Positions 50,993 to 63,910 of a DNA stretch of 64,000 bases are shown one piece after another. Source of the stretch: Ruditapes philippinarum (Eukaryota). Location of the stretch: the NCBI RefSeq assembly GCF_026571515.1, contig NW_026862686.1:1-64000 (forward strand), read 5' to 3'. The notes below the pieces were generated by a model, which was not told the origin of the DNA, ran no database searches, and saw only the letters and a program-made list of their open reading frames with translations. The first letter of the stretch is position 1. Each line of letters begins with the position of its first letter. The translations under genes were made by a program, and so were the position numbers.

Positions 50993-63910
<12,918 letters not shown>

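Follow-up and report, generated by a model that had tools for sequence, protein, structure and literature searches.

A duplicate FAS of the clam Ruditapes philippinarum without a thioesterase and with a very likely inactive dehydratase

In the portion available of a study of FAS-like PKSs (AFPKs), every animal FAS is described as having a thioesterase (TE), the AFPK mo-clades 1-3 as being without one, and FAS itself as a derived clade that sits inside the AFPKs, with AFPK offloading possibly proceeding via pyrone formation (PMC10764717). For the dehydratase (DH) domain, H878 of the human enzyme is named as its known catalytic residue in the accessible part of PMC12058525. Replacement of the equivalent His abolishes activity in natural PKSs, and His-to-Phe replacement in engineered monensin DHs inactivates just four of the six (both as described in the excerpted text of PMC7327777).

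The stretch of DNA analysed here (hereafter the window; 64,000 nucleotides, positions 1 to 64,000 of the forward strand of contig NW_026862686.1 of R. philippinarum) contains two copies of such a FAS in inverted orientation, copy A and copy B, 11 kb apart. Their main features are as follows:

8694-39293, + strand: copy A, a complete animal FASN with the order KS-MAT-DH-psiME-psiKR-ER-KR-ACP-TE
20354-20383, + strand: DH motif HxxxGxxxxP of copy A, intact by codon reading (CAT ... CCC)
50979-64000 and extending past 64000, - strand: copy B, the inverted paralogue of copy A, with 16 exons in the window
56239, - strand: an extra base in an ER exon, the sole frame break in the coding part of copy B
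52545-54593, - strand: KR exons of copy B, with the NADPH motif, Lys, Ser, Tyr and Asn retained and 2 of 123 conserved sites altered
50998-51163, - strand: ACP exon of copy B, with the phosphopantetheine Ser retained and 4 of 27 conserved sites altered

Copy A, presumably the housekeeping FASN, is, domain by domain, 96-100% identical to a Ruditapes philippinarum FASN from another assembly (P0030), and its DH motif has CAT for the His (20354-20356) and CCC for the Pro (20381-20383). Several 1-bp indels that are absent from P0030 lie at 25948-26735 in its large exon, and one more at 28136 in an ER exon. These are probably assembly errors, and would lead an annotator to label copy A, and not copy B, as broken; for much of that indel-bearing exon, the copy B counterpart (58405-59199) has a gap-free contig match in all four runs examined. 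The introns of copy A are inflated by tandem arrays (9600-10842 and 20828-21737; 21873-23068; 30477-31237) with units of ~165 bp, 150/300 bp and 335 bp, and the intron that follows the first exon of the DH measures 2949 bp in copy A vs. 434 bp in copy B. Copies of a ~230-bp palindromic element, presumably MITE-like, occur at 4860-5063, 35115-35368, 36083-36253, 41946-42227 and 43228-43474, two of them within copy A introns. Elsewhere, a ~1.1-kb stretch between 49-bp inverted repeats (1372-2477) holds ORF fragments without a Pfam match, and a Pfam search with seven intergenic or upstream ORFs gave zero matches. Between the two FAS copies, a degenerate 32/33-bp tandem array (45340-47269) runs into a 338-N scaffold gap.

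Copy B covers, within the window, the second half of the MAT through to the ACP, while its KS and first MAT half, and with them the positions of the KS Cys-His-His and the MAT Ser, lie beyond position 64000. GT-AG sites are retained at its 15 introns, and, with the extra base at 56239 left out of account, the MAT-ACP part forms a single frame of 1564 codons. This base is probably an assembly error; joined contig forms without it occur in runs X15 and X16, and are not assignable to copy B. By domain, copy B is 81-95% identical to copy A and 82-97% identical to P0030, the sole protein-level gap relative to the latter being a 4-residue deletion in the DH. A tree in which no AFPK sequence was included placed copy B as sister to A/P0030, with support of 1.0 for MAT-ER and 0.88 for KR-ACP, and by sequence (MAT to ACP only) it falls in the FAS clade. 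Retained residues include the MAT His, the DH Asp and Gln, the NADPH motifs of ER and KR, the KR Lys, Ser, Tyr and Asn, and the ACP Ser. The ACP changes (51092-51113, - strand) include the equivalent of human V2160 and a Leu restored right after the Ser; in the part of PMC12058525 that was accessible, V2160 is modelled at the interface between ACP and DH, and V2160A keeps 80% activity. A metagenome scan for copy B returned only two distant loci (73% and 59% identical), and no work on a clam FAS duplicate was found in the literature searched, which most subscription papers lie outside.

An earlier, sequence-only reading of this DNA had proposed that the catalytic His and the motif Pro of the DH are both replaced in copy B, in an exon otherwise very similar to that of copy A, and that the domain is very likely inactive. 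The DH of copy B, which spans four exons, carries the following features:

61120-61502, - strand: exon with the MAT-DH linker and the first part of the DH, spliced in RNA contigs
61271-61273, - strand: catalytic His replaced by Tyr (TAT) at the equivalent of human H878, also in P0150
61244-61246, - strand: motif Pro replaced by Ser (TCA), also in P0150
59955-59970, - strand: 12 bp deleted in frame from the third DH exon, beside a replaced near-invariant L-P-T
58995-59012, - strand: five conserved-site changes close to the DH's end

The codons of both copies thus read as claimed, and the homologous 383-nt DH exons of copies A and B are 93.5% identical without a gap. The motif His, taken in that reading to be the catalytic one, indeed aligns with H878 of human FASN, which is residue 880 in chain 3hhd_A (a numbering shifted by 2 relative to the 2512-aa porcine chain). 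Hence the His-Asp dyad of animal type I FASN is broken in copy B, with the His replaced by Tyr and the Asp retained; this Asp and the likewise retained catalytic Gln lie upstream of the 12-bp deletion (at about 60004). Both His and Pro are present in 146 of 146 homologues. Of the 325 proteins covered in the widest set (4 more had no coverage), 316 have the His and 323 the Pro, and the Tyr+Ser double replacement was confined to P0150, which is copy B itself. Besides copy B, eight of these 325 FAS-like DHs are without the His (3 Tyr, 2 Arg, 2 Asn and 1 Leu, in P0263, P0280/P0331, P0240, P0257, P0281, P0316, P0254 and P0256, several of them from mites and ticks and one from a beetle), and at least two of the His-less FAS-like proteins are also without a TE. 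Beyond the His and Pro, the DH of copy B has 10 changes at sites conserved in ≥90% of homologues in addition to the 4-residue deletion, which supports, as far as sequence can, the proposal that it is very likely inactive.

The Tyr and Ser substitutions themselves are real, and not sequencing errors. That they are not typical homopolymer errors had been argued from the letters of the assembly, which alone could not exclude error since the Ser codon adjoins a T-run and the assembly has many 1-bp indels; the argument holds once P0150 and a contig of run X16 are added. P0150, an independent record from a JGI/IMG contig, covers 80% of the exon and is 100% identical to copy B there, Y and S included; where it reads on into the intron, it departs from the intron sequence of the window, so that it represents another haplotype or assembly. 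As to whether transcripts might carry CAT/CCx at these codons, the spliced X16 contig sides with copy B: record 20, which covers 61198-61500, is 1 letter off copy B vs. 17 off copy A, and a spliced contig therefore carries one or both of the substitutions (spliced CT..AC at 61500/62918). Record 10 of X15 continues from the ACP exon of copy B into the 3' insertion described below, and B-type letters were found in spliced contigs of two studies. The label "RNA" for these contigs is a guess, and their joints coincide with introns having CT..AC ends. In addition, 14 runs from seven studies (DNA or of unknown kind) contain 0.36-0.63 of the words of copy B, of which copy A shares 0.042. The contigs are mixtures of A-type and B-type letters, which may reflect assembly mosaics or real alleles, and 31 of the 34 exonic rows listed in the read comparison, none of them at the two motif codons, carry the copy A letter; this table is thus dominated by mosaics or contigs of the A type, and polymorphism of copy B was not called from it. 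Runs X17-X20 were left out of the evidence, as was contig depth in any ranking of expression. A 1-bp deletion at 61137, in the first DH exon of copy B, occurs in one X16 contig of depth 42 and is absent from the X1, X4 and X15 contigs.

Correct as far as it went, the sequence-only reading had overlooked the RNA splicing of copy B, the relaxation focused on its DH and ACP, and the absence of a TE at its 3' end, where two features follow the ACP exon:

50798-50997, - strand: ~199-bp high-copy insertion flanked by 5-bp direct repeats, following the ACP
50636-50704, - strand: second stop (TAA at 50704-50702, where copy A has GAG) as the TE begins, followed by a 1-bp deletion and by loss of a donor site

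The insertion supplies an in-frame TAG at 50981-50979, directly past the ACP, and the depth at position 50823 inside it is 19,000-72,000. It is presumably SINE-like; ARAGORN found no tRNA in it and Rfam gave no match to it, the only Rfam-type hit nearby being a chance one (E 4.3). Downstream of copy B, from 39300 to 50640 outside the N gap, no TE exons or TE homology were found. Taken together, the stops at 50981 and 50704, the lost donor and this absence of downstream TE exons indicate that copy B is TE-less: the C-terminal thioesterase of animal type I FASN is absent from it. Two Mercenaria proteins, P0031 and P0032, end at or no more than 2 residues from the codon of the second stop of copy B (50702-50704). 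Given these coinciding chain ends, a TE loss shared by descent with Mercenaria was considered, and it is not favoured, as copy B groups with copy A and the sequence to either side of its stop is A-like. The coincidence may reflect convergence, or an old shared stop masked by gene conversion.

Evolutionarily, the ratio of dN to dS between copies A and B is 0.26 overall (MAT 0.13, ER 0.12, KR 0.24, DH 0.28). When amino acid changes were polarised, those on the copy B side vs. the P0030 side numbered 28:3 in the DH (p-value 5e-6), 14:0 in the ACP, 5:1 in the MAT, 10:5 in the ER, 14:9 in the KR and 38:26 in psiME/psiKR; with Mercenaria P0002 as sole outgroup, the counts were 25:5 for the DH, 4:4 for the MAT and 8:5 for the ER. 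Sites were then scored over 97 homologues, those conserved in ≥90% of them being taken as conserved and the rest as variable. Changes of copy B at conserved vs. variable sites were 12/90 vs. 20/151 in the DH, 4/27 vs. 10/51 in the ACP (with two hits at invariant sites), 2/123 vs. 22/127 in the KR, 1/114 vs. 7/118 in the MAT and 6/192 vs. 5/138 in the ER. The excess of conserved-site changes in the DH over MAT, ER and KR combined (12/90 vs. 9/429, p-value 3e-5) was also seen over all changes with the motif codons dropped (26/239 vs. 29/813, p-value 4e-5); counting each cluster of DH changes once gave a p-value of 0.02, and of 0.14 when the motif codons were dropped as well. Rough dN/dS estimates for the copy B lineage, which like the relaxation shares given below assume that synonymous changes are split evenly, are 0.47 for the DH and 0.49 for the ACP vs. 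0.13 for the MAT, 0.14 for the ER and 0.26 for the KR, and the last three values contradict neutral evolution across all domains of copy B. Gene conversion was rejected as the source of the MAT and ER similarity, since the domains have comparable dS values (0.17-0.24; 0.33 for the ACP).

Every domain of copy B shows an extra ~8-15% of background relaxation, compatible with a recent death of the whole gene. The candidate disabling lesions in its coding part are the extra base at 56239 and the frameshift at 61137 in a single X16 contig, and stops occur only after the ACP. The lone indel of the DH is in frame, and the eight alignable intron pairs have 84 frameshift-size gaps in 2516 aligned bases, a count inflated by global alignment. 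A DH whose sequence drifts while its frame is kept implies a continuing need for the domains downstream of it, so that the DH would have been lost while the protein of copy B was still under selection.

Our main reading, to which we would give a probability of roughly 0.5, is that copy B is a duplicate clam FAS, DH-dead and TE-less, which would act, or would have acted until recently, as a partially reducing synthase. In such an enzyme, the KS (beyond the window) would condense acetyl and malonyl units loaded by the MAT and the KR would reduce the keto group; with the dehydration step absent, the cycle would stop at 3-hydroxyacyl-ACP, and the ER would be left without a substrate. Rat FAS with the H878A mutation reportedly makes 3-hydroxybutyryl-CoA. 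Release without a TE could proceed by transfer to CoA via the MAT, or by lactonisation or ring closure, and TE-free pyrone release by mFAS is reported in the available part of PMC12856111. Judged from its domain content, copy B would likely make 3-hydroxybutyryl-CoA, a short hydroxy-lactone or a pyrone, and is predicted not to make saturated C16-C18 acids. Several observations run against a synthase: the ACP is relaxed like the DH though any synthase needs its ACP, the ER is slow-evolving despite having no expected substrate (although the few changes that it has do hit conserved sites, 6 of 192), and both the 61137 frameshift contig of X16 and the extra base at 56239 have to be accounted for.

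These same two frame lesions also fit a gene that worked for a time after losing its DH and TE and has since become a transcribed pseudogene at an early stage of decay, without a product, as do the relaxation of the ACP at invariant residues, the similar low background relaxation in each domain, the two successive stops and the repeat insertion at the 3' end, and the absence of an annotated copy B protein among the homologue-search matches. We regard such decay as plausible, though less likely than the synthase in view of the open 1564-codon frame with its intact splice sites and of the B-type letters in spliced contigs of two studies. Had it occupied the last 10% of the branch, 1.5-7.8 frameshifts would be expected vs. 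the 0-1 seen; however, the probability of at most one frameshift ranges from 0.56 to 0.004, and this comparison is hence not decisive. Animal FAS is a dimer, and a further candidate role for copy B is that of a non-autonomous heterodimer partner of copy A, which would lend KS/MAT or dampen palmitate synthesis and for which its own DH, TE and ACP would be dispensable. The 81-95% identity of the two copies, and the similar share of the branch over which DH and ACP have been relaxed (about 0.43 and 0.49), are in line with this. However, the KR is the most clearly constrained domain of copy B and, from complementation of rat FAS, is said to serve the ACP of its own chain, so that a role without the ACP does not explain this constraint; as the Ser motif of the ACP is retained as well, we consider a heterodimer partner improbable.

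Two further explanations concern the DH lesion itself. The Tyr/Ser DH might retain some dehydratase activity or have gained a new one, since its catalytic Asp and Gln are still in place and His replacement left two of six monensin DHs active in the available text of PMC7327777. However, its conserved sites change as fast as its variable ones, a conserved loop has been deleted, and the known repurposed DH folds, in the parts of the literature seen, retain the His, all of which makes residual chemistry very improbable. An artefact, in which copy B would be a divergent allele (haplotig) of copy A put on the far side of the scaffold gap, or the two codons would be assembly errors, is prompted by the N gap between the copies (46932-47269) with tandem repeats on its flanks, by the many 1-bp indels in the assembly and by the mixing of A and B letters in the contigs. 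Yet dS between the copies is 0.22; the 8 of 15 intron pairs that can be aligned show 21.7% mismatch; P0030 is near-identical to copy A and clearly further from copy B; both letter types occur at some sites in all four runs examined; and P0150 carries both the Tyr and the Ser. The haplotig or error explanation is thus already largely refuted, and we attach next to no credence to it.

Returning to the reading of copy B as a partially reducing synthase, one might tentatively go further and see in it a PKS being born from a housekeeping FAS in one clam lineage, with its DH switched off, its TE shed and its ACP retuned, convergent with the Tyr-DH, TE-less architecture of a mite and a beetle, and with a hydroxylated polyketide lactone new to bivalves as its product; we think this extension rather unlikely. 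On the main reading, copy B would represent a recent step opposite in direction to the published derivation of FAS, leading away from FAS to a partially reducing enzyme that has no TE, and, its parent being so close by and so similar, the changes leading from a FAS to a PKS-like enzyme would be few and could be tested singly. The parallel TE loss in Mercenaria and the arthropod Tyr-DH, TE-less proteins would suggest a repeated route. If copy B is merely decaying, it would be an ordinary duplicate whose domains were lost in an unusually orderly way.

Among known systems, an identical Tyr+Ser motif is reportedly present in avermectin module 7, although we did not find this motif in the literature searched. 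Among bacterial modular PKSs, natural loss of the catalytic His in inactive DHs leaves a hydroxyl in the product (in the excerpted text of PMC7327777); unlike these, copy B, an animal enzyme, is iterative and stems from a housekeeping FAS. Two arthropod proteins, KAI1291794.1 from the mite Halotydeus (P0263) and CAH1155575.1 from the beetle Phaedon (P0331), have like copy B a Tyr at the DH His and a chain that ends past the ACP, and their KS, AT and KR motifs are intact; they are distant from copy B and differ in that the motif Pro is retained and that an ER NADPH motif was searched for and not found, and DH-exon identity to copy B is 42-45% for P0263 and P0280. Within the venerids, the Mercenaria mercenaria proteins XP_053376816.1 (P0031) and XP_045164352.2 (P0032) are FAS-clade duplicates that, like copy B, end in the ACP-TE linker, and a Pfam search finds no TE in them. 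Unlike copy B, they retain the DH His and Pro and form a clade of their own, and their ends are known from gene models only.

With the canonical clam FASN (copy A and P0030), copy B shares the order of the domains and the exon layout over the MAT-ACP part, and differs by the replaced DH His and Pro, the 4-residue DH deletion and the absent thioesterase. AFPKs are defined by the HMM score of their KS and by placement in mo-clades 1-4 (Lin et al. 2024). The mollusc AFPKs of mo-clades 1-3 (such as EcPKS1/EcPKS2) are, like copy B, FAS-like and without a TE. Copy B would thus resemble a TE-less AFPK in architecture, while its 82-97% identity to the canonical FAS (MAT-ACP) argues against membership: the AFPKs are old clades that form a grade, whereas copy B is a young offshoot within the FAS clade.
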